NCBI GenBank assembly: GCA_041649475.1 | Contig: JBAZNA010000001.1 | Span: 328,612 to 392,611 of the forward strand | Length of the DNA stretch: 64,000 nucleotides | From: Patescibacteria group bacterium | Lineage (GTDB): Bacteria > Patescibacteriota > Patescibacteriia > Magasanikbacterales > GWA2-37-8 | Direction of reading: 5' to 3' | Shown: piece after piece, positions 12,301-59,816 of the stretch | Position numbering within the stretch: the stretch's first letter is position 1 | Layout: every line of letters starts with the position of its first letter | The notes under the pieces: generated by a model | The model's input: the letters and a program-made list of their open reading frames with translations, nothing else | Databases searched by the model: none | Told to the model about the DNA's origin: nothing | Made by a program: the position numbers and the translations under genes

Positions 12301-14036
12301 ATCCGGCCAATCCGCACAGTGTGGCCGCTCTCACCGCAGGGTCCCTTAGTAGTATTAATGTTTATAATAGTTTGGTTTTTGCGACTGATGCTTCCGGAGC
12401 AATACACATCATAGATGTTTCCGATCCCGCCATTCCCAAGAATCTTGAGGTGTATACCGGATTGGTACACGCGGGTTATGTGTCGCAAAACATTGCGGTT
12501 AGCGGCAATTATGCCTATGCGGTCCATAGTAGCGGTTTGACCATAGTTGATGTTTCAAAATATACAAATAATTGCCCGGCCAATTCTGATGTCACGAATT
12601 TAATTGTTTTGAATAGTCCGAACGCCAATTTACCGTGGTATGAAAAGATTTGGACAAATATTGTGCAATTTGTAAAATCATTATTCGGATTTACAGCCAC
12701 GGCCCAAAGCAATACCCCGACTAAATGGTGCGCCGGCCTTGATTTGGGCACGCCCGCCATGTTATCAAGCAGTACCATAATGGTGAAACTACAAGCGCCT
12801 TTGGCTTTAGACACCAGTTATGCCATCATTTTAAAGCATGGTCTCAAAGACACAAATGGCGTCAGTATTGATACCAGCACTAATTGGAGATTTGTAACCG
12901 CGCCTAAGATTTGTCAGGTCAGTGGTGTTAGTGTGACTCCAAATGCAGTGGCTTTTGGCAGTGTGGGGCAGACCAGCACCCTAGAGGCCAAGGCCCTGGC
13001 GGCGAGTGGCGGTGAAATACAAATTATACCCGGATATTATGCCTGGGAATATGTTTGGGGTCCCAGCAGTAATGCCTTTGTTACTTTGACAAACACCACC
13101 TCATCGCTCAATATGATTACTGCCCAAAATCGGAATGGTGAACTTGATGTTTGGGCTTCCGCTAATATAACTGACAATAAATACACCAGCCAGACCGGCC
13201 CGGCGGCAACCGGCAAGTCGCACGTGATTGTTTTCCTGTGTGAAAATCCCTGGCCGCCGAAGAATTTATATTATAATAATCAGGGGCCGTTTATGATTTT
13301 CCCTTATGAAGATAAATTGGGGAATAATGATAATTATAATTTAACGGCCGATAGTTTTGATAATACGGCTCTGCCGGCATCTCCGTTTGGCGGATACTTC
13401 AATTTTAGAACTTATTATTGCGCGGATAACGGCGCGCCCGGAACGGCCGATGATTTGCCTTATATGCGCGCGGCCGTACAGGTTTCACCGACGATTGTGA
13501 GCGACGCCACTGCTTTTAAACGTTTCATATTTACCAGCGCCAAAAACAATGACGCCATTGGTATTCAGGTCTTTCCCAATACCCAGCACTTAACGGTTGA
13601 ACAGTGGTTCCAATATGGCAAGACCTATGGCGGTCAGGGATTTGTCACCGGCGGAAATATGCAGCCAACCACCATAGACGGTTATGACGCGCTTTCCGAC
13701 GGCAATAATATTTACGTTGACGCGCTCAATTACGCTACGACATCGCCGGTTTCGGGGAATTTATATACCAATGTATATCTCTTTAGTATAAACGCCGATG
13801 CCCGGCCCGAAACCAGGAAGGTCTTTGAACAAATGATTAACAATTGGCATTTTAATATTAATCTAACTAATTACAGACGCTGTGGCGTGGATGTGGAGAG
13901 TCCCGGCGACACTTCTTGTCAGACCGACCTTGATTGTTCAGGTGGACAGATTTGTTCCGCGCAAATTGATAAATTAAAACGCAATTATCAAAGATTGCGG
14001 GATTTAAATGAAATTCAAAAAGCATTAGGGCAATAA
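6333..14036 (+). CDS. giant (2567 aa) secreted surface protein with pilin-like N-domain, 4x IPT/TIG, Myxococcus-type Cys-rich repeats and an LVIVD beta-propeller
   Basis: Signal peptide plus the same two-helix N-domain. Four TIG-like units ('RITGVSPGSGAVGTYVSISGEYFG', 'ITISGKNFGA', 'LTITGNNFGA', 'MKIYGEYFGG'). 'VCGNGFLGTGEDCD' and 'CGDKVLSPDEDPGCDG' repeats. Repeated 'VSGNYAYV..(L/I).V.D(V/I)S.P..P' blades at ~nt 11700 to 12600. Confidence 0.8.
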   Translation: MPAKFKKIFIILSAVAVIAGGLFWFAQISNAQQGPDLGLAQVSSTIGLPTTDIRVIVANIIRTALGLLGIVALVLVLYGGYTWMTAGGNEEKIAQAKKILVNAVIGLAIILSAYAITSFIISSLLGATTGTPAHCFDGIQNEGETAVDCGGGGCGPCTAPNNPYFTSGAFYITALPAGGQVCIRNVNPAITFNMDVDAASLAGSVVLLDNNNNEQAGVWSVVDGNTAKFTPVGACGAPDNGNDCLLASTNYTLHFKNGGAIKSADGRAINCLAGAKCTDVQFTTGDGIDRTPPTVKIENIADDKLVTGQVVPVKISYTDDNGVQKIDLKADNNYVGSGTVSGCQKTGSVTINWPTAGLSDGAHGLDAKGYDWSMQSAVDHYAAILKPPHCLNNILDGNEDQAGPLGCCAPEKNCGCGGCGGSSCTQDTDCASGYCKIPPGQTTGVCVDRMRITGVSPGSGAVGTYVSISGEYFGTARGQVYFTGASGWLVAPLADCGAGAWKPWQVIATVPQGAITGPIRLITADQQFVDVTNDNVVGPLIPDFVVNNLVRPGICSLDKTNGLPSDSITISGKNFGAVQLANSAVSFGQLQAFINVWGDTTIKTKVPMLSAGPAAVKVTKENIDSNSVAFFVGEGINSTTPTITSISPDHGAKGEYLTITGNNFGAEQGRVWFKVNNNGQPANDQDAINGSFDFPAGCKDNIWSDSKIIVKFPESAGQTGQTYFVQVRPSEIDKGWSPIGPTFKLETGNPAPGICGISPASGPVPFGTGADPMKIYGEYFGGSPDVYFWNTNADASTITGRIKAANPNISGSDLNVFPPNNTQTGPVVVFRSSDSKMSNSALFTVSNCVQNGNSCSQAGYHCCAAGPEAGMCKTDLCIDEKISAGYIWRFATQPIPKVPHLVERCDSQSDAGKNVPSPSPSVQWDTNDSGDHHNVCRTASIVLDFSVDNINPIPRGDILVSECESSTVNVASRTCTQLTPRPSFLGSGDYVVEHSTQSTNDLELDLSQDYNNNTGKWKDNTWYQVILSADISAGAGTALMHLAKDAPCDSAGITNTAYCFLFKTDAKDCKIKAVAITPYSYWASVLEAPIKYRSSPSDEGVDLVYSGHILSDQHCIWMNPGGLNWDWNVANPDPNQKKYADVFALKEDTVVHKTDALISALANTVGVGLANNSVDVEATVSTGTVSHTGSSPLKIDLNTPEVVDYWPKCNEACANAEVGAKFNTTMSDLNLDSGAVHLYKCLDENCAQTQPVVLPSVSFEKNSNPPYTLLEINNYGLNHVDLEPNTIYEVVLSASSSNPNSPDQLWSASSLLTDRDADGNVIVIGRSGTSKPYNKQFIWKFTTKQTSCAVDRTEVLPSVFTARQNNDRAVFNVQPYSAPDACSVKGQKLNPWSENWVWSSSDVNAATVATFSTQGYSPYCTSDCIRRGSTLPAGSDTVPLCGSGGNPQAGQDCVFPDKNNNCSLNCLFINKTNTGSAQSAGATSVSSSVCGNGFLGTGEDCDIGIPANPLSPTSSMYCSNKCLHLGAPLASSWCNTHFTDYAGLGFTKTEFEAACAKAISVCGDKVLSPDEDPGCDGSGGWDQNLCNRICLLKSNNAPTDNAPANSCSNGGCNLDNKHAGSSLLYSTPSVCGDKAVGIGEDVSCENNNFITTDHVGKTDPWALVLGKGLSTNVGGTPPAQSSTISATANVSGKNIAGQGQFVIPCGYKTDAECKNALGDDYGLGANSCCYKKPVLTKVYPGTTSTPIAQNVCPNTVIEAQFSNSIDAKSLPGNLLIARGIGENFSTNLNIDSTVGLSGSSHVFVSGNYAYVANSLNGLNVINISDSKHPLPIWTPLNTANYADVYVIGKYAYIVDQGANSLKIFDISSSTNPTVVGSVDLVNITNPNRIVVSGKFAYVISANGGNIINVANPAGPTFSTKLSISPRQIQPAGNNIALLDNNNFTIMDFSDPANPRTIGSVQVNDAQDFKVSGNYAFLAGTGGLQILDISNPANPHSVAALTAGSLSSINVYNSLVFATDASGAIHIIDVSDPAIPKNLEVYTGLVHAGYVSQNIAVSGNYAYAVHSSGLTIVDVSKYTNNCPANSDVTNLIVLNSPNANLPWYEKIWTNIVQFVKSLFGFTATAQSNTPTKWCAGLDLGTPAMLSSSTIMVKLQAPLALDTSYAIILKHGLKDTNGVSIDTSTNWRFVTAPKICQVSGVSVTPNAVAFGSVGQTSTLEAKALAASGGEIQIIPGYYAWEYVWGPSSNAFVTLTNTTSSLNMITAQNRNGELDVWASANITDNKYTSQTGPAATGKSHVIVFLCENPWPPKNLYYNNQGPFMIFPYEDKLGNNDNYNLTADSFDNTALPASPFGGYFNFRTYYCADNGAPGTADDLPYMRAAVQVSPTIVSDATAFKRFIFTSAKNNDAIGIQVFPNTQHLTVEQWFQYGKTYGGQGFVTGGNMQPTTIDGYDALSDGNNIYVDALNYATTSPVSGNLYTNVYLFSINADARPETRKVFEQMINNWHFNINLTNYRRCGVDVESPGDTSCQTDLDCSGGQICSAQIDKLKRNYQRLRDLNEIQKALGQ

Positions 14037-14040
14037 TTGT

Positions 14041-17000
14041 ATGCGTAAAAAAGCAAGTTTGATTATAATGTTTCTGTTCATGGTGCCGCTTATAAAAGAA
14101 GGATCATTTTTAAGCGGACAGAGTTTGAGCGTTTGGCCGTCCTGGTCTGTTTTAGGCAACGCGGTTGGCGTAGCTTTACCGGTTGATCCGATTAATAAAC
14201 TGGCGCCGGCCGGCACCTGCGCTTCTTCAACCAATCATTTCTGCGTAAAGAACACTGATTGCCCGGCTATGATCGGCACAACCACGCCGGAGAGTTGTAT
14301 TTTGCACGATCCGGCCACTGGCTGGAGCACTGTTAATCGTCGGTTTAGCTTCGCTTGCTCCACTTCTTCTTATGCTTACAGATATATTGACATCTCCACC
14401 ACCACCTACAAAATTTTAGCGCATTTTGAAGATCCTTTTGGTAACAGCAACGCGATTGCCAATTGGAATGATAATTTTGTATATAAATTTGTCAGCACCA
14501 CTGAATCGCCAAATCATAGTTATATTGTAATAAGCCAGCAGTATGGCATATGCAATAATGATCAGGAGATATCAACCCTTCAGCAGGGTTCTTGCGGTGA
14601 CAAGGTCTTGAATCCGAACGAGCAGTGCGACCCGCCGGGAAGCATGAGATATAGCGCTTGTTCGCCGGACGCGATTCATCCTAACCAAATCAGAGTTGAT
14701 AAATGCGGCACGGACTGTAAGTGGTCAGTTGCGCCAACCTATATATTATGTTCGGCTTTAAGCAAATGCGGCAATGGCATTATAGAATCAGGAGAACAAT
14801 GTGATGATGGCCGGTTAAACGGAACCTATAATCATTGCAATACAAGTTGTACGGGAAAAGTTGCCCCTTATAGTTCACATAACCCAAACGGATCCCCGGG
14901 TTATTGCGGTGATGGCGTTTCGCCAAACTATATAGTAAATCCAAAATATGAGGTCTGTGATAAGGGCGGAGTTGATTTTTGGGCGTTGCAAAGAGCGAAT
15001 TCCTGCAGTTGGAACTGCCAAGGGTATGGGCCTTATTGCGGCGATGGTGTTAAAAACGGTTCGGAAGAATGCGACGGTAACCAGCCATGTACGGCAAGCG
15101 GAAAAAATGGAACGATAGTGTGCGATAACACCTGTCATATAGTTTATCCGACCCAACAACCGGCCGTGGCAAATGATTTTGCCTTGTGGACTTTTGATAA
15201 CACAGACATGAATGGATCCACAATTATAGATAAAAGCGGAAACGGTCAGGATGCGATGGCTTATGGCACCTATTCAATTGTAAACGGCCATTCCGGACAG
15301 GCCATACAATTTGATGGACAAACAGCATTTGTTTCCAGCACCGTTATGAATTTTTATAAATATTTTTCAGCTGATTTTTGGATGAAGATCAACCAAACGG
15401 ATAATAATTGGCGAATGATTATGGCTGAAAATAATTGGAACGCGGGTCTGGGTTGGATGATGTATACAAGTCAGGGTTCTGCTAGCGGCAAAGCCAATTT
15501 TACCTATATGCGGTCTGGATATTCCGGAGTTGCCGTTGCTGATGCGTTTGATGTTGGTGTTTGGCAGCATGTTAAGGTTGTAAACAACAATGGCTCCGCA
15601 AAGGTGTATGTTAATGATATTTTAAAAGGCAGCGGTGCGGTTAGTATAAGCAATGCCGGTAATAACCTGCTTGTGGGAGCCGGCCATAATAATGATGGAA
15701 CCGGTGCTTCAGGTTATTTTAATGGAATAATAGACGAAGTTCATATAGCTAATAGTTCCACTACGCCACTGCTCCAATCATGCACTGTCGCGGTCAGTCA
15801 AGAGCCCACCAGTACTCCCGGGGCCTGTGGTGATGGACACGTAGATGCCAGTGAGGCCTGTGACAAGGGAGCGAATAATGGTAAGCCCTGTACGCCCGGA
15901 TACGATAAGGCCTGTTCTTACTGTTCGGCCGATTGCCAGAATGTGATTGATGTCCAGCCCACTGCTTATTGCGGCAATGGCCTGATAGAAGGAACAGAAG
16001 TTTGCGACACTGATCCTGGTAATGGAGATATTTATGTTTCCAGCACGGTATTTTGTACGCCGACAAATGAAGGCGGTCATGGCGGCGGTTTGACCTGCAA
16101 TTATCCTGATATTCTTAAATATACCTTTCAAAATCCGGTAACCGGACACGGTGGGCTCAAAGTTGTGAAGGATTGTGAAAGCGAAACTGCAAATGCGAAC
16201 ACCGTTAAAAAAGGTATTAAGGCCTGTGTTAATAATTGTAAAGCGGTGAAATTGACGACTGGAGAGGATCAATGCATAGCCTGCGGTTTAGATCCGGTAA
16301 ATGGCGTTGAAGTGGGTGGTTATGTGCTTAATGCGATTGATCCACTTTCAGGAAATCCGCTGATGGGAGTCGGTGGGCATACTGGTAGCCAGACCAAACT
16401 GGAGCTTTATTTGGGAACAAAGAAAGATTTTTCCTTCTCTCCCATTACTGCTACTAAAGTTACCGGCTATTGCGCGGCCAATACGTTCTATAAAAATTAT
16501 TCATTTTCAAGTTCCGTTCATCCTGACGCTTGTAATAACACCAGAGGGCTGTTAAATCCAAATCCGATTTGTTCCACCGGAAAAACCAGTTATAAGCTGA
16601 TTGTTAATGATGGTACTACTCATGTTTTTCCATTTTCAGTTATATCTGATCCGCTTGAAAAACAACCTTGGAGAAATGACTTACTGTTATCGCCGATGAT
16701 ACCACAACCCAGTCATATCAGGGTGGTGGTCAGCTGGGTCGGCGACGGAGAATTTTATAGCGGATTTTTAGACCCAGCCCAAACCAGCGATCCGATTATT
16801 GAGGGGTCTAAGTTTGTGACCGGCGATTATGTTGACCAGACTGTGGTTTACAATTATTCCACAGGTAAGGATTATTATACCCAAACTGATTCGGATCATA
16901 AAAAATTAGGTATTTGGTATCATGGCTTTGGCGATACTCCTAATTTGTTAAAAGAGGAGTCGTTTACAGTTGATACTGCAAATATGGATTCCGGTAATTA

Positions 17001-17841
17001 TGTTTTTTATGTCAGATCCGGAGGTCCGATTAAGCCATATCAGGTTTCGGCAAATTTGAAAGTGGAGGTTTATTTGCCGGAAGGTGATACTAATTATCGC
17101 CATTTCGGTTTGCCGGCGGCAACTTATTATTTAAGCGGCGCCTTGCCGTCTGATAGTCCGGCCGCGAGTTATTGGCAGGTCTTTAATATCGTTGATTCAA
17201 ACGGCACCGTGACCTTAGCGGATAATATCCTGGACGTTAATTCAATTGTTTCTGCCCCAAGATACTTTATTTATTCAACTTCTTGTATTGGCCGGGCCGG
17301 AAGATTATGCCGGGCATCGGCCGGACCTTGCGACACTGCCGAATATTGTGTGGCCGGAAATGATGTTTGTCCGGAAGATTCTTTTAGATCGGCCACGGCT
17401 TATTGTTATGACAATCTGGCTAGCAAACCGTGTTACAGCGGGGCCACCTGCAGTGGTTATTCTGCAGATTGTCCGCAAAGCACATATAAAGCGGCTGGTT
17501 TAACATGCACGGGCTTTGTGGTTGACAGTGAATGTGAGAATCCAGCAACCTGCAATGGAACCTCTTATGAATGTACCGGTAGTTTAACCTTAAAACCAGA
17601 CGGCACCTCATGCGGAAATGTGTGTAATAACAATGTTTGTCAGGGCGGATCCTGCAGAGCTGGCACCCCGACCAACTGTGCCAGCAGTAACCCCTGTAAA
17701 AATCCGGTTTGTGATCCTCTGATTGGTTGTACCTATAAACCAATAGGATCTCCTTGCAGTACTACTTCAGGTTCCGGTACTTGTCAGTTTCATTTGGGAG
17801 GTGGAGATCAGATTACATGTAAATATACCATCATCTACTAA
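14041..17841 (+). CDS. secreted 1266 aa Cys-rich protein with Myxococcus-type CGDG/ECD repeats, a LamG_3/concanavalin-like lectin domain and a Cys-rich C-terminal module
   Basis: Signal peptide. Repeats 'YCGDGVKNGSEECDGN', 'KCGNGIIESGEQCDDGRLNG', 'ACGDGHVDASEACDKG' and 'YCGNGLIEGTEVCDTD'. LamG_3-like region ending 'GIIDEVHIANSSTTP' (compare 'DEVRIYNRALS'). C-terminal ~200 aa with more than 30 Cys. Confidence 0.75.
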   Translation: MRKKASLIIMFLFMVPLIKEGSFLSGQSLSVWPSWSVLGNAVGVALPVDPINKLAPAGTCASSTNHFCVKNTDCPAMIGTTTPESCILHDPATGWSTVNRRFSFACSTSSYAYRYIDISTTTYKILAHFEDPFGNSNAIANWNDNFVYKFVSTTESPNHSYIVISQQYGICNNDQEISTLQQGSCGDKVLNPNEQCDPPGSMRYSACSPDAIHPNQIRVDKCGTDCKWSVAPTYILCSALSKCGNGIIESGEQCDDGRLNGTYNHCNTSCTGKVAPYSSHNPNGSPGYCGDGVSPNYIVNPKYEVCDKGGVDFWALQRANSCSWNCQGYGPYCGDGVKNGSEECDGNQPCTASGKNGTIVCDNTCHIVYPTQQPAVANDFALWTFDNTDMNGSTIIDKSGNGQDAMAYGTYSIVNGHSGQAIQFDGQTAFVSSTVMNFYKYFSADFWMKINQTDNNWRMIMAENNWNAGLGWMMYTSQGSASGKANFTYMRSGYSGVAVADAFDVGVWQHVKVVNNNGSAKVYVNDILKGSGAVSISNAGNNLLVGAGHNNDGTGASGYFNGIIDEVHIANSSTTPLLQSCTVAVSQEPTSTPGACGDGHVDASEACDKGANNGKPCTPGYDKACSYCSADCQNVIDVQPTAYCGNGLIEGTEVCDTDPGNGDIYVSSTVFCTPTNEGGHGGGLTCNYPDILKYTFQNPVTGHGGLKVVKDCESETANANTVKKGIKACVNNCKAVKLTTGEDQCIACGLDPVNGVEVGGYVLNAIDPLSGNPLMGVGGHTGSQTKLELYLGTKKDFSFSPITATKVTGYCAANTFYKNYSFSSSVHPDACNNTRGLLNPNPICSTGKTSYKLIVNDGTTHVFPFSVISDPLEKQPWRNDLLLSPMIPQPSHIRVVVSWVGDGEFYSGFLDPAQTSDPIIEGSKFVTGDYVDQTVVYNYSTGKDYYTQTDSDHKKLGIWYHGFGDTPNLLKEESFTVDTANMDSGNYVFYVRSGGPIKPYQVSANLKVEVYLPEGDTNYRHFGLPAATYYLSGALPSDSPAASYWQVFNIVDSNGTVTLADNILDVNSIVSAPRYFIYSTSCIGRAGRLCRASAGPCDTAEYCVAGNDVCPEDSFRSATAYCYDNLASKPCYSGATCSGYSADCPQSTYKAAGLTCTGFVVDSECENPATCNGTSYECTGSLTLKPDGTSCGNVCNNNVCQGGSCRAGTPTNCASSNPCKNPVCDPLIGCTYKPIGSPCSTTSGSGTCQFHLGGGDQITCKYTIIY

Positions 17842-38285: not shown

Positions 38286-38300
38286 AATTAAGTATGAATA

Positions 38301-38361
38301 GTATGAGAGATGAAGTTTTGAGCACTAGCGACAGCTTGGCGAAAAACTTCATCTCTCATAC
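38301..38361 (+). repeat. conserved-loop hairpin element, copy 1 (19 bp perfect stem, 23 nt loop GAGCACTAGCGACAGCTTGGCGA)
   Basis: Left stem 'gtatgagagatgaagtttt' pairs with 'aaaacttcatctctcatac'. The loop is shared with four other copies. Confidence 0.7.
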
Positions 38362-38420
38362 TATCGTATTTATAATATGTAGCTATATTATACAACTTCC
38401 TTAGCTATACAGCAAACAGT

Positions 38421-38453
38421 CAAAAGGAACAAAAACGCCGGCTAGGCGGCCGG
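38421..38453 (-). terminator. candidate terminator of the HTH gene (short GC hairpin over the stop codon, T-run on the minus strand)
   Basis: 'ccggc taggcg gccgg'. The minus strand then reads 'cgtttttgttcctttt'. Confidence 0.35.
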
Positions 38454-38804
38454 TGTTTCTGGTTCATTTTCTTTTTTATTTTCTACAGTTTTGGGGTTGG
38501 GGGAGTAAAGGGGATTCTTGATCTTCCATTGACCTACAAATTGCCCAATTCCTTTATTAATCAGCTTGTTTTTAATTGTGGTATGGCGTTGTGACCACTT
38601 AACTAAGCTTTCAAAATTTAGTTTATATCTTCCGGCTACTATAATATAAGTGACTTCTTGAGCTGTAATAGCGCGTCTGATGGTTTGGGCATTTACACCA
38701 AAGAGTTTGGCGGCTTCAGAAATGGAGACCCTGATGATTTCTTTGGGGTTTTCTGTTTTTTTATTGTCTTCATTCATAGTAGAAGTATACAATAGTGTAT
38801 ACAA
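38442..38804 (-). CDS. small helix-turn-helix DNA-binding protein (excisionase/MerR-like HTH). The track start is TTG; an ATG at 38777 gives 111 aa
   Basis: 'ISEAAKLFGVNAQTIRRAI' HTH. Basic, 111 to 120 aa. Confidence 0.5.
   Translation of the reverse strand: MYTLLYTSTMNEDNKKTENPKEIIRVSISEAAKLFGVNAQTIRRAITAQEVTYIIVAGRYKLNFESLVKWSQRHTTIKNKLINKGIGQFVGQWKIKNPLYSPNPKTVENKKENEPETPAA
38785..38804 (+). promoter_or_regulatory. operator-like 20 nt element GTATACAATAGTGTATACAA, copy 1 (two GTATAC palindromes), at the HTH gene start
   Basis: An exact second copy lies at 38975 to 38994. A related 'tgtatacgcttgtctatacaa' is at ~38862. Confidence 0.45.
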
Positions 38805-38899
38805 TCATAGCACAGCTACAGATATTTGTCAATCAAATCATATAGATAGTTGTTGTATTTATTATATTTGTATACGCTTGTCTATACAATTTTACAATA

Positions 38900-38963
38900 A
38901 TACACACGGAAAAGTAGTATTTTTCGCCAAGCTATCGCTAGTGCAAAAAACCTCATGTGTGTA
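38900..38963 (-). repeat. conserved-loop hairpin element, copy 2 (minus orientation, imperfect stem)
   Basis: Contains 'ttttcgccaagctatcgctagtgcaaaaaa', the reverse complement of GCACTAGCGATAGCTTGGCGAAAA. Flanks 'tacacacgg' and 'cctcatgtgtgta' pair with a bulge. Confidence 0.55.
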
Positions 38964-38974
38964 CTATTATGTTT

Positions 38975-38994
38975 GTATACAATAGTGTATACAA
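38975..38994 (+). promoter_or_regulatory. operator-like element GTATACAATAGTGTATACAA, copy 2
   Basis: Identical 20-mer ~190 nt from copy 1. Confidence 0.45.
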
Positions 38995-39013
38995 ATTATT
39001 ACAGATACTGACA

Positions 39014-39109
39014 ACTTACAGACATAAAGAAGATTTTAAGCACTAGCGAAACACCTTTAAATCAAGTATGTGTGGAGCTTGGCGAAAAATCTTCTTTATG
39101 TCTGTAAGT
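39014..39109 (+). repeat. conserved-loop hairpin element, copy 3 (24 bp perfect stem; loop carries a ~25 nt insertion)
   Basis: Stem 'acttacagacataaagaagatttt'/'aaaatcttctttatgtctgtaagt'. Loop 'aaGCACTAGCGAA-acacctttaaatcaagtatgtgtgg-AGCTTGGCGA'. Confidence 0.65.
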
Positions 39110-39136
39110 CTTTGTGTGGGTATTTGTATATTTTAT

Positions 39137-39165
39137 TTGACCAAACCTTGAAATTTTGCTAAAAT
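39137..39165 (+). promoter_or_regulatory. sigma-70-like promoter upstream of the ECF sigma gene
   Basis: TTGACC, 17 nt spacer, TAAAAT. Confidence 0.35.
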
Positions 39166-39200
39166 ATGTAACATTAATTTTGAGCTATAACAAGGTAGGT

Positions 39201-39225
39201 GTAACACTTTTAATTATTTTACGTC
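39201..39225 (+). promoter_or_regulatory. ECF-type promoter (GTAAC-N16-CGTC) abutting the sigma gene start; implies autoregulation and a leaderless transcript
   Basis: 'gtAAC acttttaattatttta CGTcta' is an exact AAC-N16-CGT core. The ATG at 39233 is ~7 nt after CGTC. Confidence 0.45.
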
Positions 39226-39232
39226 TACTATA

Positions 39233-39796
39233 ATGTCAGCCAAGAAGCTTACCGAGAAAATCCTCCTCTATCAACTATATACTAAGCAAGATCCTGAAGC
39301 GTTTGCGAAACTTTACGATTTGTACGCAAGACGCATTTACAGGTTCGTTTTTTTTAAAGTTGCAAATCATGAAGAAGCCGAGGATGTTACTTCTGAAGTA
39401 TTTTTAAAGGCCTGGAATTTCATAAGCGAGAAGAAAAAGATTGATAGTTTCAGCGGGTTGCTTTACAAATTGGCACGCAATTGCGTGATTGATCTATACA
39501 GAAAAAAATCCAGACAAACAGAAATCTTGTCCCTGGATAATATAAATGAAGAAAGCGGGCTTGATATAAATGATGCCGGAAAATGGAAAGAAACATTCGG
39601 AGATAAAATGGAAGCGCAAAAAATCATTCAGGCCTTGCAAAAATTAAAACAAGAATATAGAGAAATAGTTACTCTGAAATATGTTGATGAACTGGATGTA
39701 AGCGAGATTTCCGAAATAACCGGAAAAGGCGGTATAGCAGTAAGAGTCACTTTGCATCGTGGTCTAAAAAAATTGAAAGAGCTTTTGGAAGGTTAA
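39233..39796 (+). CDS. ECF-family RNA polymerase sigma-70 factor
   Basis: 187 aa. Region 2 'LYKLARNCVIDLYRKK'; region 4 'EYREIVTLKYVDELDVSEISEITGKGGIAVRVTLHRGLKKLKE'. Confidence 0.8.
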   Translation: MSAKKLTEKILLYQLYTKQDPEAFAKLYDLYARRIYRFVFFKVANHEEAEDVTSEVFLKAWNFISEKKKIDSFSGLLYKLARNCVIDLYRKKSRQTEILSLDNINEESGLDINDAGKWKETFGDKMEAQKIIQALQKLKQEYREIVTLKYVDELDVSEISEITGKGGIAVRVTLHRGLKKLKELLEG

Positions 39797-39799
39797 AAT

Positions 39800-41119
39800 A
39801 TGTATCGCAACATAATTAAACAACTCAAAACTCTGAAACATCAGGATGTCAATCCTAGCAATGAGTGGTTAGAGAATAACCGCGGGCTTTTGCTGTCTCA
39901 AATAAAAAATACAGTTACCCAGGAACCTTCCCAATTTAAAATGGAGAATGTCTGGCAGAGCCTGTCCATCTTTTTACCGCAATCCTTTGTTAATTCAATA
40001 GTTCGCCCGGCCTTGGCGCTGGCCCTCATTATGGGTATGGTTGGTGGCGGCTGGCTTGGAACAGTGTCAGCTTCAGCCGAAGCTCTGCCCGGGGATTGGT
40101 TATATGCTGCTAAGAAAATTACAGAACAAACCCAAGCGGCGGTGGTGGCGGTTGTTGGAGATAAGAAGGCCGAGGCCAGCTTACATGTGGAGTTTGCCAA
40201 ACGCCGAGCCATAGAAACCAAAAAAATTATCAGCGATCCGCAGAAAATCGGTATGGCCATGAACACTGTTAATGATTTGAAAAATGAAATTCAAACTGTG
40301 AGCAGCACCTTGAATGATTTAAAAACTAATACCGACGCGTCGGTATCCGCTCAAACCGCCAAAGACATATCTCAAAATGCGGTGCAAATCCAGGATGTCT
40401 TAACTTCCGTAAAAACAGATCTTTTAACCACTCCAACCAGCACAGCGGCCAGTTTAAGTGATTTGACCACCCGGGTAGCTGAAGCCAAAAATTTAACCAA
40501 AGACACTGCGGTGAAAGCAATGGAAGTTATGGTAACCAAACATTTGCAGGGTGATAATAGCGTTTCCAAAGATGAAGTAAAACAAGTTATAAATAATCAA
40601 TTGCAATCTGCGGTTGCCGATGCCGCCGTATCTCAACAAAATACCGCGGATGTTAATCAAGCCATCAATATTGTAAAAACCGAAGTGGCTGCTATTTCCA
40701 AAGACGCCAAGCAAGATAAAAATACAAGTTTAGTCAGCAGTACGCAAGTGCTGTCCACCAAATTGGAAGCCGCCAGCATTCAGACCCAGGTTGCGGTAAG
40801 TCAGACCCAACAAGTCGGGGTTGTCGCCAATCAACAAGCAAGCGAAGGCCAACAGCTTCTATCTCAAGGCAACTTATTGCAAGCTGTTGATAAAGTAAAA
40901 GTGGCTTCAGATGCCACCAAGGTATCAGAACAGATTGCCGACAATACCATTAAAACTGTTCAGACCGTATTACCGGTGGTATCGGTTGTGGGTGATAAAG
41001 GGGTATCCTCAAGCATATCAGCGGTTGTTATCACCTCAACACCATCAAGCAGCAGTACGGTGGGTATTGTCGTGAGCAGTTCAACGGTTATAATATTGCC
41101 AACCAGCACGGTAAAATAG
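39800..41119 (+). CDS. probable anti-sigma factor / membrane-anchored coiled-coil protein (assigned by context)
   Basis: Starts 4 nt after the sigma gene. ~70 aa cytoplasmic N-terminus, one TM 'ALALALIMGMVGGGWLG', then a long Ala/Gln/Thr/Val-rich extracellular region. Confidence 0.45.
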   Translation: MYRNIIKQLKTLKHQDVNPSNEWLENNRGLLLSQIKNTVTQEPSQFKMENVWQSLSIFLPQSFVNSIVRPALALALIMGMVGGGWLGTVSASAEALPGDWLYAAKKITEQTQAAVVAVVGDKKAEASLHVEFAKRRAIETKKIISDPQKIGMAMNTVNDLKNEIQTVSSTLNDLKTNTDASVSAQTAKDISQNAVQIQDVLTSVKTDLLTTPTSTAASLSDLTTRVAEAKNLTKDTAVKAMEVMVTKHLQGDNSVSKDEVKQVINNQLQSAVADAAVSQQNTADVNQAINIVKTEVAAISKDAKQDKNTSLVSSTQVLSTKLEAASIQTQVAVSQTQQVGVVANQQASEGQQLLSQGNLLQAVDKVKVASDATKVSEQIADNTIKTVQTVLPVVSVVGDKGVSSSISAVVITSTPSSSSTVGIVVSSSTVIILPTSTVK

Positions 41120-41246
41120 TTTTTTCTTCCCGCACTGCAGGCAAGATTTATTGTCTGTAACGCGGAGAGAAAAAGTTAGTAAGTAGTAGTTATTATTAAC
41201 GGTCTTAGCAAAGGTTGAGGGTCCATGAGGACTCGCCTAGACCATT

Positions 41247-44200
41247 GTGTCTCTTGCAGGTATCCTAACGGAAATTTGCGAGGGAAAAAATAATCTTAAT
41301 TTAAATATGACCGATGTATTAAAACTAGGAAAGAGAATCTTTACCATCGGCGTTGTTGTAACCACAATCATGTGGTCACTTGGCGTAGTTTCATTAGCTT
41401 CAACCGTTGCTAATGCCGCATCATGTCCAACTTTATCAGCTGGCAACATGATTAAGGTAACTGGCAAGGCAGCTATCTATGCTGTAAACAATGCTTCAAA
41501 GGTATTGTATTTTCCTTCCGGAGATGAATTTAAGAGCTGGAACGTAAACAACACCTACGGTGGCTATATTTCAGTCACCCAGGAATGTTTTGACTCTTTG
41601 TCAGTTCCCAGCACTTATCCAGGCGGAGTAAACTATCGCCCGGGTTCTTATGTTGTAAAGAGACCGTCTTCAGATCAATTATATGTAGTTGAACCAGGAA
41701 ATACTTTGGCAAAAATCAGCGTAACTGATGCCAAGGCCCTCTATGGCGCAACCTACAAAGTAATGACAGTTGCTGATCCGTTCTGGCCGCATTATGTTAA
41801 CCGCGGTGCAGACATTGCTGGCTTAGCCCATGAGGGCATGCTGGTAAGCAAGGACAGCAAAACATGGTATGTCGCCGCCGGTAACGTCCTTCGTGAAGTT
41901 ACTGCTACAGGCATGACTGCCAACAGATTCAAGACCGCATTTGTACATGCTGTTCCTGCTGCTTATTTAGCAGGATTCACCACTGGTGCTGTGCTTGATT
42001 CTTTAGATTCAACAATCAGCAACCGAACACAGGACGGAGCAATTGCTCCGGGTACTGGCGGTAACTTAACAGTGGCCTTAGCCGCAGATAATCCAGCAGC
42101 TGCAAACATTGCTGATGGATCTGCCTATAACGCTGTTTTGAAGTTAGCCCTAAGCGCTGGTAGCGCCACAAAAGTAACTGGTATTACCTTAACCAAAACT
42201 GGTTTAATCGCTAATACCAATATTACTGGCGTCAGCATTTGGGACGCGGAAGGAAATCGCCATGGCGATGTCATGACCTCCTTCACTTCAGACAATAAAG
42301 TAACTGTGGGCTTTGCCGGCAACCCAATCTTGGTTTCTTCCGGCGCCCCGGAATCTTTAATTGTCAGGTTAAATATTTCCGCTGCTGCTAACTCCGGTTT
42401 GGTTGGAATGAAAGTCGCTGCTGCCACTGATATTACTTCAGACGGCACAGTTGGCGGTTCATTCCCAATCACTGGCAACCAGATGAGTATTATTGACGGC
42501 AATGCATCATTAGCTATAGTTTCATCTACTAATGTAGCTGTCGGTGGTATTACAAATGGCAGTGAGGCAACAATTGCTCTCGCCAACATTTCAGTTGGTG
42601 ATGTCGGCAAAGAAATTGCCAAATTCAAATTCACAGAGAGCAGCGGCAATGAAGATGTTGTTATTTCAAGATTGACCTTCTATTTTGAAGGCAGCTTGCA
42701 AGACAAAGATCTTACCAATCTCTCTCTCGTGGCACCGGATGGTTCAGTATTGGGTACAGCGACCACTCTAGCTGATCGCTATGTGACCATAAATTTCACT
42801 AACCCGTATACTTTGCCAAAGAGCACCAACAGAACATTGACCTTAAAAGCCGATGTTGTTGATGGTTCAACTCATTATTTCCGCGTTCACTTACAGAATG
42901 ATTACGACATGTTGCTTAAGGGATCCACAACCGGGTTCTATATTTTACCGGACGGGTTCGCTGACCAATATGAAACAAACGGCTGGTTTGAAATCAAATC
43001 CGGCAGTTTGACTGTAAACAAGAACGTGGCTTCTCCAGCCGGGAATATCTCCTCTGGAGCTTCAGGAGTTGTGTTAGCAACCTTTGATATTAAAGCGGTT
43101 GGTGAGAACATGGAAATCCGCAAAATGGGCTTGGGAGTAGTAACTACTACTGCTTCAACCCATAAGTTAACCGGTAATATTTCTGTACAGGATTCCAGCG
43201 GCAATACCTACTTGACCGTCGCTGCTTCTGATGTAAATTTGTATTACCCAACGCAGGGCAAACAATATAACATGTCCAGCTACTTGACAATCAACTCTGG
43301 TAGTACCAAGACCTTGCAAGTAGTCGGCAATATTGATTCCCTTGCCAGCGGAGACACCTATAAGATTGCTGTTGGTGATTTCTATGCCAAGAGATTATCT
43401 ACTCTTGACTTCAAAGATAATCTGCCAACTGTTGTGCCAACCAGCACAGCCGCCAATCAATTGGCCGTGAGTGCAACCGCACTTACCTGCTACAAAGATA
43501 CTGCCATGGGTAATGTGACCCGCGCCAGCGGATCAAATACCGTTCTTGGCCAGTACATTTGTACAGCCGGCACCTCTGAAGATATTGCTTTAAGCAGCAT
43601 GACCTTCGCCTTTGGTGATACCGGCAGTGCAGCCAATACTTTCCAGAATGTAGCTCTGTATGATGGAACCACTCAATTGGGCTCCACCTTAAGCACCGTA
43701 GCTTCCACTTCAAATGGTTATACTTTCAGTTTAACTGTTCCGAAGGGCACTACTAAGACCTTGCAATTACAGGGTCTGATAATTTCAGGCGCTTCCGGTG
43801 TCGTGAGTTCATCCATCTCAGCGTATAACTACACTGGCAAGAGCAGCAACAATTCCACATCCTACACCACTCCTCTGATCGTTGGTCAGAATGTGACCGT
43901 GGGAAATGGTACATTGGGAATCGCTGCGGCATCTGATGCCTCAACTATCTCCAAGATCTACGGTCCGAGTCAGACCGGTGTTCAGCTTGGTAAGTGGAAA
44001 TTATCCGCGGCCAGCGATAGCGTGACCTTAAACAAGTTGTCGTTTACTTTAAGGCTGCCGGATGGTGCTCCTATTATTGACTACACCACTTCAGGTCTAT
44101 TCGGTCTGTTAACATTGTACGATTCTACCGGCGCTGCCTTAGCTACAGGCAATTATGTTGCTGGCAATGTTGTTTTCACCGGGCTCACTCTTGAAATCCC

Positions 44201-45014
44201 GATGGATTCATACAAAGTCATTACCTTAAAAGGTAACACTAATGGCTCAGGCGTGATTAACAAAGATCAACCGGTTGACTTCGTAATCAAGAGTAATAGC
44301 AATACGGACATGGAAGCCAGATCAGGCGCAGGTTCTTTATTGGCAGCCGCCGATATTGGCCTTACCACTGCTGGTAGCAATTCCGCAATGGAAAGATTTG
44401 CGACTTCTTCTGCCTACATCTTCCATGATGCGTATCCGACAATTACTGCCACATCTTTGGGCTCTGCCTTAGCTTTGGACACCAAAGCTCAAATACTTAA
44501 ATTCACAGTTACCAATTCTGGTGCCCGTGATTTAAGAGTTGGTTCAACTACGATTTCTGTTAGCGTGTCCGGTTTGGCCGGCGCAGGAACATCTAGTGGA
44601 ACAATCAGAGACTTCAGATTGTATGAAGATAACGGTTCAGGCGGACTTGGAACTTATCTTGCTGTAAACGATACAGTGGTAAATTCCAGCACAGCCAATC
44701 CATCCACCGTTACCTTTGATGGGGCTCAAGCGGCCACAACTGGTTCAATGAGTAATATTACTATTGGTCCAGGCGCCGCGATTACCTTTATTGTCACTGC
44801 TGACACATCCAATATGGGTACTAGCAAGACCTCAGGCACCAGCGTAACGCTGTCTGCCAAGATTGCCGGTTCAACAGGTTGGAGCGGTTCAGCGTGGAAT
44901 ACAGGCAACTTGTTCTACTACTACACTCCAGTCGGAGGTAGCGAGAACACTGTTCCTTATTCAGCTTCAGATTCTTACGAAGTGTCCGGATCAACAATGA
45001 CCCGAGCCTTCTAA
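41247..45014 (+). CDS. large (1255 aa) Ser/Thr/Gly-rich surface protein, S-layer/adhesin-like, with tandem Ig-like beta-sandwich repeats (an ATG at 41307, 'MTDVLKLGKR', may be the true start)
   Basis: Signal/anchor 'IFTIGVVVTTIMWSLGVVSLASTVANAAS'. ~200 aa N-domain, then ~1000 aa of low-complexity repeats ('TLTLKADVVDG', 'TKTLQLQGLII', 'VITLKGNTNGSG'). Sits directly downstream of the ECF pair. Confidence 0.6.
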   Translation: MSLAGILTEICEGKNNLNLNMTDVLKLGKRIFTIGVVVTTIMWSLGVVSLASTVANAASCPTLSAGNMIKVTGKAAIYAVNNASKVLYFPSGDEFKSWNVNNTYGGYISVTQECFDSLSVPSTYPGGVNYRPGSYVVKRPSSDQLYVVEPGNTLAKISVTDAKALYGATYKVMTVADPFWPHYVNRGADIAGLAHEGMLVSKDSKTWYVAAGNVLREVTATGMTANRFKTAFVHAVPAAYLAGFTTGAVLDSLDSTISNRTQDGAIAPGTGGNLTVALAADNPAAANIADGSAYNAVLKLALSAGSATKVTGITLTKTGLIANTNITGVSIWDAEGNRHGDVMTSFTSDNKVTVGFAGNPILVSSGAPESLIVRLNISAAANSGLVGMKVAAATDITSDGTVGGSFPITGNQMSIIDGNASLAIVSSTNVAVGGITNGSEATIALANISVGDVGKEIAKFKFTESSGNEDVVISRLTFYFEGSLQDKDLTNLSLVAPDGSVLGTATTLADRYVTINFTNPYTLPKSTNRTLTLKADVVDGSTHYFRVHLQNDYDMLLKGSTTGFYILPDGFADQYETNGWFEIKSGSLTVNKNVASPAGNISSGASGVVLATFDIKAVGENMEIRKMGLGVVTTTASTHKLTGNISVQDSSGNTYLTVAASDVNLYYPTQGKQYNMSSYLTINSGSTKTLQVVGNIDSLASGDTYKIAVGDFYAKRLSTLDFKDNLPTVVPTSTAANQLAVSATALTCYKDTAMGNVTRASGSNTVLGQYICTAGTSEDIALSSMTFAFGDTGSAANTFQNVALYDGTTQLGSTLSTVASTSNGYTFSLTVPKGTTKTLQLQGLIISGASGVVSSSISAYNYTGKSSNNSTSYTTPLIVGQNVTVGNGTLGIAAASDASTISKIYGPSQTGVQLGKWKLSAASDSVTLNKLSFTLRLPDGAPIIDYTTSGLFGLLTLYDSTGAALATGNYVAGNVVFTGLTLEIPMDSYKVITLKGNTNGSGVINKDQPVDFVIKSNSNTDMEARSGAGSLLAAADIGLTTAGSNSAMERFATSSAYIFHDAYPTITATSLGSALALDTKAQILKFTVTNSGARDLRVGSTTISVSVSGLAGAGTSSGTIRDFRLYEDNGSGGLGTYLAVNDTVVNSSTANPSTVTFDGAQAATTGSMSNITIGPGAAITFIVTADTSNMGTSKTSGTSVTLSAKIAGSTGWSGSAWNTGNLFYYYTPVGGSENTVPYSASDSYEVSGSTMTRAF

Positions 45015-45051: not shown

Positions 45052-45078
45052 AAAACCCGCCCGCAAGGGCGGGTTTTT
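45052..45078 (+). terminator. rho-independent terminator (GCAA tetraloop)
   Basis: 'acccgcc c gcaa g ggcgggt' followed by ttttt. Confidence 0.75.
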
Positions 45079-45079
45079 G

Positions 45080-45108
45080 TTGACAAAAACATACTTATTG
45101 TGTATAAT
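45080..45108 (+). promoter_or_regulatory. perfect sigma-70 consensus promoter for typA
   Basis: TTGACA (45080 to 45085), 17 nt spacer, TATAAT (45103 to 45108). ATG at 45134. Confidence 0.6.
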
Positions 45109-57544: not shown

Positions 57545-57605
57545 GGTAGTGATATATGTTTTTGAGCACTAGCGATAGCTTGGCGAAAAAACATATATCA
57601 CTACC
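57545..57605 (+). repeat. conserved-loop hairpin element, copy 4 (19 bp perfect stem, loop GAGCACTAGCGATAGCTTGGCGA)
   Basis: Stem 'ggtagtgatatatgttttt'/'aaaaacatatatcactacc'. Sits 14 nt after the stop of the preceding gene. Confidence 0.7.
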
Positions 57606-59743: not shown

Positions 59744-59816
59744 ACAAAAGAGGGATGGAAAGAGTTTTTCGCCAAGCTTCGCTAGTGCTCAAAACTCTTT
59801 CCATCCCTCTTTTTGT
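59744..59816 (-). repeat. conserved-loop hairpin element, copy 5 (about 25 bp stem; loop is the reverse complement GAGCACTAGCGAAGCTTGGCGA). Probable bidirectional terminator between rplL and the convergent gene
   Basis: Stem 'acaaaagagggatggaaagagtttt'/'aaaactctttccatccctctttttgt'. Loop 'tcgccaagcttcgctagtgctc'. Confidence 0.7.

Follow-up and report, generated by a model that had tools for sequence, protein, structure and literature searches.

In the window, which is the whole 64-kb stretch of Patescibacteria DNA analysed here (contig JBAZNA010000001.1), the gene of a sigma factor of the extracytoplasmic function (ECF) type is followed by the gene of a membrane protein with a DUF5667 domain and by the gene of a very large secreted protein, and the locus raises the question of whether these genes form one regulatory circuit and from which promoters it would be expressed. 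The best explanation of the locus as a whole, with a probability of roughly 0.7, is an operon with two promoters, comprising the sigma gene, the gene of a putative anti-sigma factor, a structured RNA and the surface-protein gene. The core of the original prediction made for this DNA, a sigma factor with its own promoter, stands, whereas a separate promoter of the large gene, a 950-nt non-coding stretch and the proposed start of the large gene do not. Coordinates of the features are given in Table 1.

Table 1. Features of the sigma factor locus and its flanks in the window (HTH, helix-turn-helix; AF2, AlphaFold2; ORF, open reading frame; strand "." for features with no strand assigned)
Feature	Coordinates	Strand	Basis
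Membrane or surface protein gene, 582 aa	36537-38285	-	Weak DUF11/CARDB-type matches
Putative intrinsic terminator of the HTH gene, hairpin and T-run	38438-38453	-	Sequence
Small HTH protein gene, 111 aa, excisionase/MerR-like HTH_17	38442-38777	-	Near-cutoff family matches, orthologues
Putative operator O1, aaGTATAC-N6-GTATACAA	38783-38804	.	Abuts the -10 element, covers the expected HTH transcription start
Putative HTH gene promoter of the sigma-70 type, TTGACA, 17-nt spacer, TG-n-TATGAT	38804-38832	-	11/12 consensus positions and TG extension
Putative operator O2, TTGTATAC-N6-cTATACAA	38868-38889	.	Sequence match
Putative operator O3, TTGTATAC-N6-GTATACAA, perfect	38973-38994	.	Sequence match
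Putative distal sigma-70-type promoter of the proposed sigma operon, TTGACC, 17-nt spacer with TG, TAAAAT	39137-39165	+	Sequence match, conservation
Putative proximal ECF-type promoter, TGTAACA (-35), T-rich spacer, CGTCT (-10)	39200-39226	+	Invariant blocks, fixed geometry
ECF sigma factor gene, 187 aa	39233-39796	+	Pfam Sigma70_r2 and Sigma70_r4_2, TIGR02937
Putative anti-sigma factor gene, 439 aa, DUF5667	39800-41119	+	Pfam, synteny, AF2
Hairpin P0, 3' strand is the purine run GGAGAGAAAAA	41121-41174	+	Fold; no T-run after it, so not a canonical terminator
RNA core: P1 enclosing the 5' bulge A-R-GUCGA and hairpin P2, then AUUGUR	41189-41257	+	Covariance model R1, 61.8 bits
Distal hairpin module, variant of TYGAC-hairpin-GCGCA, ends about 24 nt before the ATG	41244-41291	+	Leader comparison, fold
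Putative large secreted surface protein gene, 1235 aa	41307-45014	+	Conserved ATG, composition, synteny
Wall-anchor-like domain, about 200 residues (40-240), three beta/alpha repeats	41424-42026	+	AF2, no Pfam family
Canonical intrinsic terminator closing the proposed operon, GCCCGCAAGGGCGGGT then TTTTG	about 45059-45080	+	Sequence
Putative typA/bipA promoter, perfect 12/12 TTGACA-17-TATAAT	45080-45108	+	Directly after the terminator
typA	45134 onward	.	ORF list

The sigma gene, its proximal promoter and the downstream unit

For comparison, 80 loci encoding orthologues of the sigma factor were used, and their upstream regions were aligned on each start codon. Promoter geometry was counted in 79 sequences, namely, 78 related genomes and the window, and the DNA scanned for motifs comprised the 64-kb window and flanks of 7 kb to either side of the sigma gene from the related genomes, 1.03 Mb in total. 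Sigma relatives with 50-70% identity come from Magasanikbacteria assemblies, with few exceptions. The gene of the DUF5667 protein adjoins the sigma gene in all 78 loci, and the large gene is located downstream of it in 71 of 78. The cluster of sigma, DUF5667 and surface-protein genes is a fixed core locus across the lineage of Magasanikbacteria-like Patescibacteria, with the same layout in ~80 related species; its description as a surface-remodelling module stays speculation.

The sigma factor contains the Pfam domains Sigma70_r2 (E = 8e-13) and Sigma70_r4_2 (E = 5e-13) and no r3 domain, which is the composition of ECF (group 4) sigma factors, and matches TIGR02937 with 83.1 bits (cutoff 42.9). 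Its closest solved relative is SigW of B. subtilis (5wuq, E = 1.4e-19). The best NCBIfam family, the BldN family TIGR02952, is matched with 117.5 bits, below the cutoff of 206.45, and the SigW equivalogs NF007223 and TIGR02948 with 95.3 and 93.2 bits (cutoffs 209 and 243.1, respectively). Since these scores are far below the cutoffs, the protein is, as judged from them, an ECF factor outside every characterised equivalog, although an ordinary kind of sigma system. The candidate phyla radiation (CPR), or Patescibacteria, is absent from the main text of the ECF classification of Casas-Pastor (2021).

An ECF-type promoter, GTAAC-N16-CGTC, had been predicted to end ~7 nt ahead of the sigma ATG, and the sequence bears this out: GTAAC is located at 39201-39205 and, after a 16-nt spacer, CGTC at 39222-39225, with the ATG at 39233. 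The window by itself is uninformative on this site, because the pattern GTAAC-N15-18-CGTC occurs there once, with 0.76 occurrences expected by chance; the site is regarded as a genuine promoter because of its conservation across species at a fixed geometry. The blocks TGTAACA and CGTCT are invariant across the aligned upstream regions, and in 73 of 79 sequences the spacer between GTAAC and CGTC is exactly 16 nt and the distance from CGTC to the ATG exactly 7 nt, the consensus being TGTAACA-N15-CGTCT-w-CTAtaATG. The spacer is T-rich, variable in sequence and fixed in length, and no conservation at a fixed position was found 5' of the -35 element. In four further loci the ECF-type site lies ahead of an alternative start codon, and in loci L007 and L012 it is 110-150 nt upstream of the sigma start, owing to an insertion. 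A weight matrix made from these sites gave 80 matches on both strands of the 1.03 Mb, all of them before the sigma gene, and none in shuffled sequence.

The conserved block thus agrees with the AAC (-35) and CGT (-10) motifs, separated by 16-17 nt, of ECF promoters, which commonly precede the gene of the sigma factor itself. Given two invariant blocks, their fixed spacing, the match to the AAC/CGT core and the position ahead of an ECF sigma gene, an ECF-type promoter is the only reasonable reading; it is very probably autoregulated, and TGTAACA-N15-CGTCT is presumably used by the sigma factor encoded downstream. Since the distance from CGTC to the ATG is fixed at 7 nt, the transcript from this promoter would be leaderless or would carry a leader of 1-2 nt; the leaderless autoregulated transcript of the original prediction is supported in this way by the geometry of a conserved promoter that abuts the start codon. 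The insertions in L007 (6891-7001) and L012 (6841-6992) part the sigma start from the ECF promoter, including its CTATA(A/G)TG, and end in palindromic ATATTAACnTTGTTAATATA directly ahead of the sigma ATG.

The large gene had been expected to carry an ECF promoter of its own as a target of the regulon. No ECF-type site was found before it in any of about 70 genomes, either with patterns or with the weight matrix. The proposed check for other AAC-N16-CGT promoters likewise gave no site besides the one of the sigma gene, with the exact and one-mismatch patterns in the window and with the matrix over the 1.03 Mb. Sigma-70 promoters were sought over the 250 nt that lead up to the anti-sigma stop codon and over the spacer behind it; a match at 10 or more positions was present in 9 of 72 loci, which is the background level, and the match TTGTCG-16-TATAAT in the window (41067-41094) is not conserved. 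No hairpin with a T-run, i.e., no terminator, was found between the anti-sigma gene and the large gene. Textbook signals are present elsewhere in the lineage: TTGACA-17-TATGAT before the divergent gene of a small helix-turn-helix (HTH) protein, a perfect TTGACA-17-TATAAT before typA, right behind a canonical terminator at 45059-45074, and, in most loci, a terminator and then a promoter between the HTH gene and the 582-aa gene. Because no ECF or sigma-70 promoter and no terminator intervenes, while clear signals flank the unit, the large gene is probably the third gene of the sigma operon, transcribed by read-through in one unit from 39233 to about 45080. The terminator and the typA promoter at 45059-45108 are a useful internal standard for transcription signals in this genome.

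Alternatively, the large gene would be an independent unit with an unrecognised promoter (a weak -35 element or another sigma factor), the structured RNA before it would be a long 5' untranslated region, and the ECF targets would be located elsewhere. Such an arrangement would agree with the long structured leaders that are typical of highly expressed surface-layer genes, with the match at 41067-41094 in the window and with the position of hairpin P0 right after the anti-sigma stop codon, where it could end the upstream transcript. However, P0 is not followed by a T-run, the match in the window is not conserved (9 of 72 loci with any match at 10 or more positions), no conserved -10-like hexamer occurs at a fixed position in the alignment of the leaders, and the HTH, typA and 582-aa genes carry obvious consensus promoters. 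An independent unit is unlikely, and one operon that extends into the surface-protein gene is the preferred reading.

The DUF5667 protein and the distal promoter

The second gene of the proposed operon had been predicted to start 4 nt after the sigma gene and to encode a protein with a single membrane helix. Both points were confirmed: the last nucleotide of the sigma stop codon is 39796 and the following open reading frame begins at 39800, leaving a gap of 3 nt, and the product has one hydrophobic helix. The domain DUF5667 (PF18915) was found at residues 95-207 with 35 bits, above the Pfam gathering cutoff of 27, and is present in all orthologues of this membrane protein. In the AlphaFold2 (AF2) model, with a predicted local distance difference test score (pLDDT) of 73.5, short helices of low confidence at residues 2-14, 21-38 and 48-55 are followed by the membrane helix at residues 61-83, by a long and confident extracytoplasmic helical bundle at residues 100-390, including DUF5667, and by a disordered Ser/Thr tail. 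Residues 1-40 are the most conserved part of the protein in the alignment of 38 orthologues, with the consensus M..(L/I)I.QLK.LKH.EV.P...WL..NR.LLLSQIKNTV and ten invariant positions (L9, K10, L12, P19, W23, R28, L31, Q34, I35 and N37).

The protein accordingly shows the features of membrane-bound anti-sigma factors, namely, a gene adjacent to and co-oriented with the sigma gene, one membrane helix, a cytoplasmic N-terminus and a conserved head, and its invariable adjacency to the sigma gene fits the anti-sigma factor of the original prediction. A zinc-binding or other anti-sigma domain, whose absence the prediction had itself named as counting against it, was not recognisable in 39800-41119. 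Residues 1-60 contain no Cys or His motif and, with the full protein and a profile of the head, gave no match to an anti-sigma domain in Pfam, NCBIfam or the PDB; the head profile matched only CARD domains in PDB and Pfam, spuriously, with E about 0.03. A class I anti-sigma domain (a three-helix bundle with a fourth helix, often with the motif H-x3-C-x2-C) was not recognised. Foldseek searches with the model gave only generic helical-repeat and designed proteins, and searches of the accessible literature returned nothing on DUF5667, on ECF factors with Parcubacteria, or on Magasanikbacteria with S-layers. The context still favours the role of an anti-sigma factor, which we infer for this protein, because anti-sigma domains are highly divergent in sequence, with three structural classes known (PMC6101532).

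The same protein could be an envelope protein that does no more than share the operon, e.g., one that helps to assemble or tether the surface protein, in which case the sigma factor would be constitutive or otherwise controlled. The failure to detect an anti-sigma domain by sequence, the large extracytoplasmic bundle with its uninformative structural matches and the position of the gene between the sigma gene and the structural surface gene would all suit such a function. It is made improbable by the strict adjacency to the sigma gene (78 of 78 loci) across a 3-nt gap, by the topology with the N-terminus inside the cell and a single membrane helix, and by the location of the highest conservation in the 40 cytoplasmic residues, which implies a conserved cytoplasmic partner; the known diversity of anti-sigma domains and their three structural classes (PMC6101532) also lessen the weight of the missing match. 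The DUF5667 protein is therefore treated below as a putative anti-sigma factor.

A distal promoter of the sigma operon (39137-39165), overlooked in the original prediction along with the structured RNA before the large gene, has the form of a housekeeping promoter. In 62 of 68 loci, the 200 nt ahead of the sigma ATG contain the pattern TTGAC(C/T)-17-TGnTAnnAT; the control rates are 9 of 72 in the region before the large gene and 16 of 68 when the opposite strand is read. Its position varies between loci, and for this reason it is invisible in the alignment anchored on the ATG. Because this sigma-70-type promoter is conserved alongside the ECF promoter, the sigma operon would have a classical promoter pair, with a housekeeping promoter for basal expression and an ECF promoter for feedback.

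The reading of the block before the sigma ATG as a translation or RNA signal in the leader of the distal transcript, or as a site for another DNA-binding protein, is very hard to sustain: the conserved distal promoter implies that transcription passes through the block as part of a 5' untranslated region, and conservation runs on from CGTCT to the ATG as CTAtA, but two invariant parts with a variable T-rich spacer of exact length are characteristic of promoters, the block matches the AAC/CGT core of the ECF type upstream of an ECF sigma gene, and the block is unrelated to the operator of the HTH gene.

The structured RNA and the putative surface protein

The spacer of 187 nt between the anti-sigma gene and the large gene folds in the window with -70.9 kcal/mol (z = -5.45) and contains three successive parts. 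The long hairpin P0 starts at the anti-sigma stop codon, and its 3' strand carries the conserved purine run GGGAGAGAGAAAA; 58 of 69 loci have this run, 55 of them in paired form. About 12 nt after P0, helix P1 begins, and within the core the bulge A-R-GUCGA is nearly invariant across loci (AGGUUGA in the window). P2 is a 6-bp hairpin, GRGnnn-AUAA-nnnCUY, and AUUGUA follows the core. The pairs of P2 are formed in 97-98% of the sequences, with compensatory changes in five of six pairs, and those of P1 in 70-75%, with double changes in eight of eight pairs, while pairing in the slid controls went down to 19-57%. The covariance model R1 gave 70 matches in 81 sources, one per locus and always before the large gene, with no match elsewhere in the 1.03 Mb. 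Rfam 15 contains no match to the leader (41120-41306), either at gathering thresholds or at E <= 10. The RNA structure is a previously undescribed element, absent from Rfam.

The distal module in its strict form, TYGAC-hairpin-GCGCA, was found in 22 of 67 leaders, compared with 0.14 expected, and GCGCA is always located 24-29 nt before the ATG. In many loci, e.g., L023, L029, L032 and L059, the module is placed within an enclosing helix. The last part of the leader, up to the ATG, is AT-rich and has no Shine-Dalgarno site. TYGAC is complementary to the invariant core bulge GUCGA, and a pseudoknot between the two is a hypothesis compatible with the sequences, the window having GUUG-UAAC where other loci have GUCG-UGAC; some loci lack TYGAC, and covariation could not be assessed because the bulge is nearly invariant.

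Motifs similar to a Shine-Dalgarno site (GGAG/GAGG) were found in the 25 nt upstream of only two of the 41 long open reading frames of the window, although the 3' end of the 16S rRNA (about 1390-1405) is canonical, GGATCACCTCCTTTC, ending in CCUCCU. For this reason, translation initiation in the lineage seems to be largely independent of Shine-Dalgarno pairing. Sequences upstream of start codons are AT-rich, with many -10 elements 8-25 nt from the ATG. The intercistronic position of the RNA, its stable 5' hairpins, the fixed distal module and the rarity of Shine-Dalgarno sites suggest that it most likely acts in processing or stabilisation of the mRNA, in control of translation initiation, or in both.

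The start of the large gene had been placed at GTG 41247, giving a protein of 1255 aa, but this codon lies inside the conserved RNA; all orthologues start at an ATG equivalent to 41307, which gives 1235 aa. The protein is rich in Thr (12%), in Ser and Ala (11% each) and in Gly (10%), and it has four Cys. Its 230-270 N-terminal residues are about 60-68% identical among the closer orthologues, and the remainder, in comparison with the more distant ones, shows 28-40% identity. Searches of Pfam and NCBIfam gave no match, and no internal repeat was found at the BLAST level, so of the Ser/Thr-rich, Ig-repeat protein of the original prediction the composition stands (Ser and Thr together 23%), while the Ig repeats find no support here. 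Known anchoring or lattice domains (SLH, CWB2, etc.) were not found.

Residues 45-240 of the protein are modelled by AF2 with pLDDT 85-97 as three beta/alpha repeats. The best PDB matches of this domain, the periplasmic repeats of EccB from type VII secretion, have E about 1e-3. EccB repeats resemble the wall-binding PlyCB subunit, which is a lead, not a test. Relatives of the domain form 652 clusters at 50% identity, 230 of them with E <= 1e-10, and include the paralogue P0247 on the same 963-kb contig. In proteins of 200-3100 aa, the domain is placed right after the signal peptide or at the extreme C-terminus. Such terminal placement in very different large proteins is expected of an anchoring module; the domain of ~200 residues behaves like a wall anchor and is a candidate for a new domain of Patescibacteria that anchors proteins to the cell wall. 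A surface location of the large protein is suggested by its signal peptide and composition and by the anchor-like domain, and the label "S-layer or adhesin-like" is plausible, since the distribution of the domain fits a surface anchoring module.

Two adjacent giant open reading frames (2567 aa and 1266 aa) are located in the window at 6333-17841 on the plus strand. The anchor domain was not found in them with tblastn, and whole-window scans gave no ECF promoter (weight matrix) and no copy of the RNA motif (covariance model) near them.

The divergent HTH gene, the proposed circuit and related systems

The non-coding stretch of 950 nt described upstream of the sigma gene contains the HTH gene, and the real gaps are 455 nt between the HTH and sigma genes and 156 nt between the HTH and 582-aa genes. 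The HTH gene starts at ATG 38777, which aligns across loci, and not at TTG 38804. The motif at residues 18-64 scores 26.2 bits with the Pfam family HTH_17 (cutoff 27) and 22.8 bits with TIGR01764 (cutoff 28.8), below both cutoffs, and orthologues with 60-88% identity are present in 69 of 78 loci. The gene is monocistronic, with its own terminator and then, in most loci, a separate promoter for the 582-aa gene.

The GTATAC palindrome pairs noted earlier were found again as three GTATAC-N6-GTATAC sites (38785, 38870 and 38975), the only good ones in the window. In nearly every locus, TTGACA-17-TGnTAtaAT at the HTH gene is followed at once by TTGTATAC-N6-sTATACAA, often abutting the ATG, and additional operator copies are located 60-200 nt upstream, three per locus being the commonest count. 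With up to 4 mismatches, 205 operators were found within the gaps between the HTH and sigma genes of 80 genomes; outside these gaps there were 53, compared with 70 in shuffled sequence, which is chance level. The operator nearest to the sigma gene is 100-350 nt from the ECF -35 element. The HTH protein looks like an autorepressor whose only recognisable targets would be its own operators, rather than a controller of the sigma operon, because the operators stand at this distance from the ECF promoter and nowhere else. Its role as a repressor of the sigma promoters was considered and rejected as unsupported for the same distance.

Among known proteins, the HTH protein resembles the excisionase/MerR-like group (HTH_17, TIGR01764; BldC and Xis-type proteins) in its similar motif and small size and in its putative binding to repeated sites in its own upstream region. 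It differs in scoring just below both curated cutoffs and in its putative operator, a 22-bp inverted repeat in 2-4 copies, with neither a recombinase nor a mobile element in the surroundings.

A hairpin with variable stems was observed in five copies in intergenic regions of the window, in either orientation to neighbouring genes (38298-38364, plus; 38920-38956, minus; 39014-39109, plus; 57545-57605, plus; 59750-59810, minus). Each has the conserved loop TTTTGAGCACTAGCGA, then 0-26 nt, then AGCTTGGCGAAAAA, and one copy has a 26-nt insert at its exact centre. Four copies have perfect stems of 17-24 bp, each different, while the stem of 38920-38956 is degenerate. The element resembles a small foldback or MITE-like (miniature inverted-repeat transposable element) sequence in the middle of a palindrome, e.g., in terminator loops. 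It was not found in any of the 80 related loci or in a metagenome collection, and on this ground it was rejected as part of the regulatory region.

The 16S rRNA gene is cut at the start of the window and ends at 1405; it is followed by tRNA genes at 1605-1678 and 1730-1803 and then by protein-coding open reading frames. A 23S rRNA gene was not found anywhere in the window, which suggests that the rRNA genes are unlinked.

In the proposed circuit, the housekeeping promoter would supply basal amounts of the sigma factor and the anti-sigma factor, and the latter would keep the sigma factor at the membrane by means of its invariant cytoplasmic head of 40 residues. The sigma factor would be freed when the extracytoplasmic helical bundle senses a signal from the envelope, and would then fire its own leaderless promoter, giving positive feedback with the anti-sigma factor as a brake. 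As no promoter or terminator intervenes, the same transcript would read into the surface-protein gene, the local and possibly the only member of the regulon. The intercistronic RNA would most likely process or stabilise the distal mRNA or set its translation, and in this way would allow the structural protein to be made in amounts independent of those of the regulators. A separate autorepressed unit would be formed by the divergent HTH gene.

Several points weigh against this circuit. Co-transcription is argued from the absence of intervening signals, and P0 could act as a non-canonical terminator or attenuator. The insertion of 110-150 nt in L007 and L012 indicates that a leaderless sigma transcript is not obligatory. 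The head of the putative anti-sigma factor matches no known anti-sigma domain, and the anchor domain resembles EccB weakly, with a TM-score of about 0.15. The promoter scan covered 64 kb of the organism's own genome and 7-kb flanks elsewhere, and other members of the regulon may lie beyond them.

The logic of the sigma and anti-sigma genes appears to match known systems of the SigW/RsiW and BldN/RsbN types, while membership of these families fails on curated scores. As in SigW-RsiW of B. subtilis and in SigX, SigM and SigV of Firmicutes, a factor whose domains are only sigma-2 and sigma-4 is followed by the gene of a single-pass membrane anti-sigma factor, here a putative one. Firmicute ECF systems are autoregulated from promoters of the type (T)GxAAC-N16/17-CGT, a feature that SigW-type systems and the window locus would have in common, and sigM and sigX are known to have dual promoters, one of the sigma-A and one of the ECF type. 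The anti-sigma domain of RsiW belongs to class I and binds zinc, whereas the DUF5667 protein has neither a Cys/His motif nor a matching domain; unlike SigW-RsiW, the autoregulated transcript of the window would be leaderless, and a gene of a structural surface protein would follow in the same unit.

The closest analogy in biology would be BldN of Streptomyces, an ECF sigma factor for sheath proteins held by an anti-sigma factor that has no sequence relatives. BldN directs the cell-surface sheath proteins, chaplins and rodlins, and its single-pass membrane anti-sigma factor RsbN, with a cytoplasmic region of 117 residues, has no sequence similarity to others, defines class III and is reported to be limited to Streptomyces (PMC6101532). 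Dedication of an ECF sigma factor to surface-layer proteins is the logic proposed for the window as well. Unlike RsbN, the DUF5667 protein has a head of about 60 residues with no similarity to RsbN, and BldN acts on separate promoters, whereas the target in the window appears to be co-transcribed. The Pfam family DUF5667 is itself without an assigned function, and its link to an ECF sigma factor is suggested here by genomic context.

Long structured 5' leaders are known to stabilise S-layer mRNAs, and elements located between cistrons that process or stabilise mRNA are a second point of comparison. The RNA of the window is similarly long and strongly folded, with stable 5' hairpins before a very large putative surface-protein gene, but it is a specific motif, with an invariant bulge A-R-GUCGA and covarying helices, placed between genes of an apparent operon. 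A bolder combined proposal is that P0, P1/P2 and TYGAC...GCGCA form a new cis-regulatory class, a ligand or protein switch or a processing site, that gates a major wall-anchored protein in Shine-Dalgarno-free Patescibacteria, with the ECF factor as a dedicated surface-layer sigma factor and the anti-sigma factor representing a fourth, undescribed structural class; taken together, these claims are tentative and probably exceed what holds.

Patescibacteria (CPR) have tiny genomes and few regulators, and, to our knowledge, almost nothing is known about how they control the cell surface, which is their host interface. The locus offers a concrete and testable circuit kept in about 80 species, and its precisely defined ECF promoter is useful as a search motif and in experiments in vitro. 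It also adds new parts, namely, an RNA outside Rfam, an unclassified putative anti-sigma head unlike anything described and an unannotated anchor-like domain with about 650 clusters. No current concept is overturned; the locus provides components with which gene expression and the biology of the envelope can be studied in an uncultured lineage.

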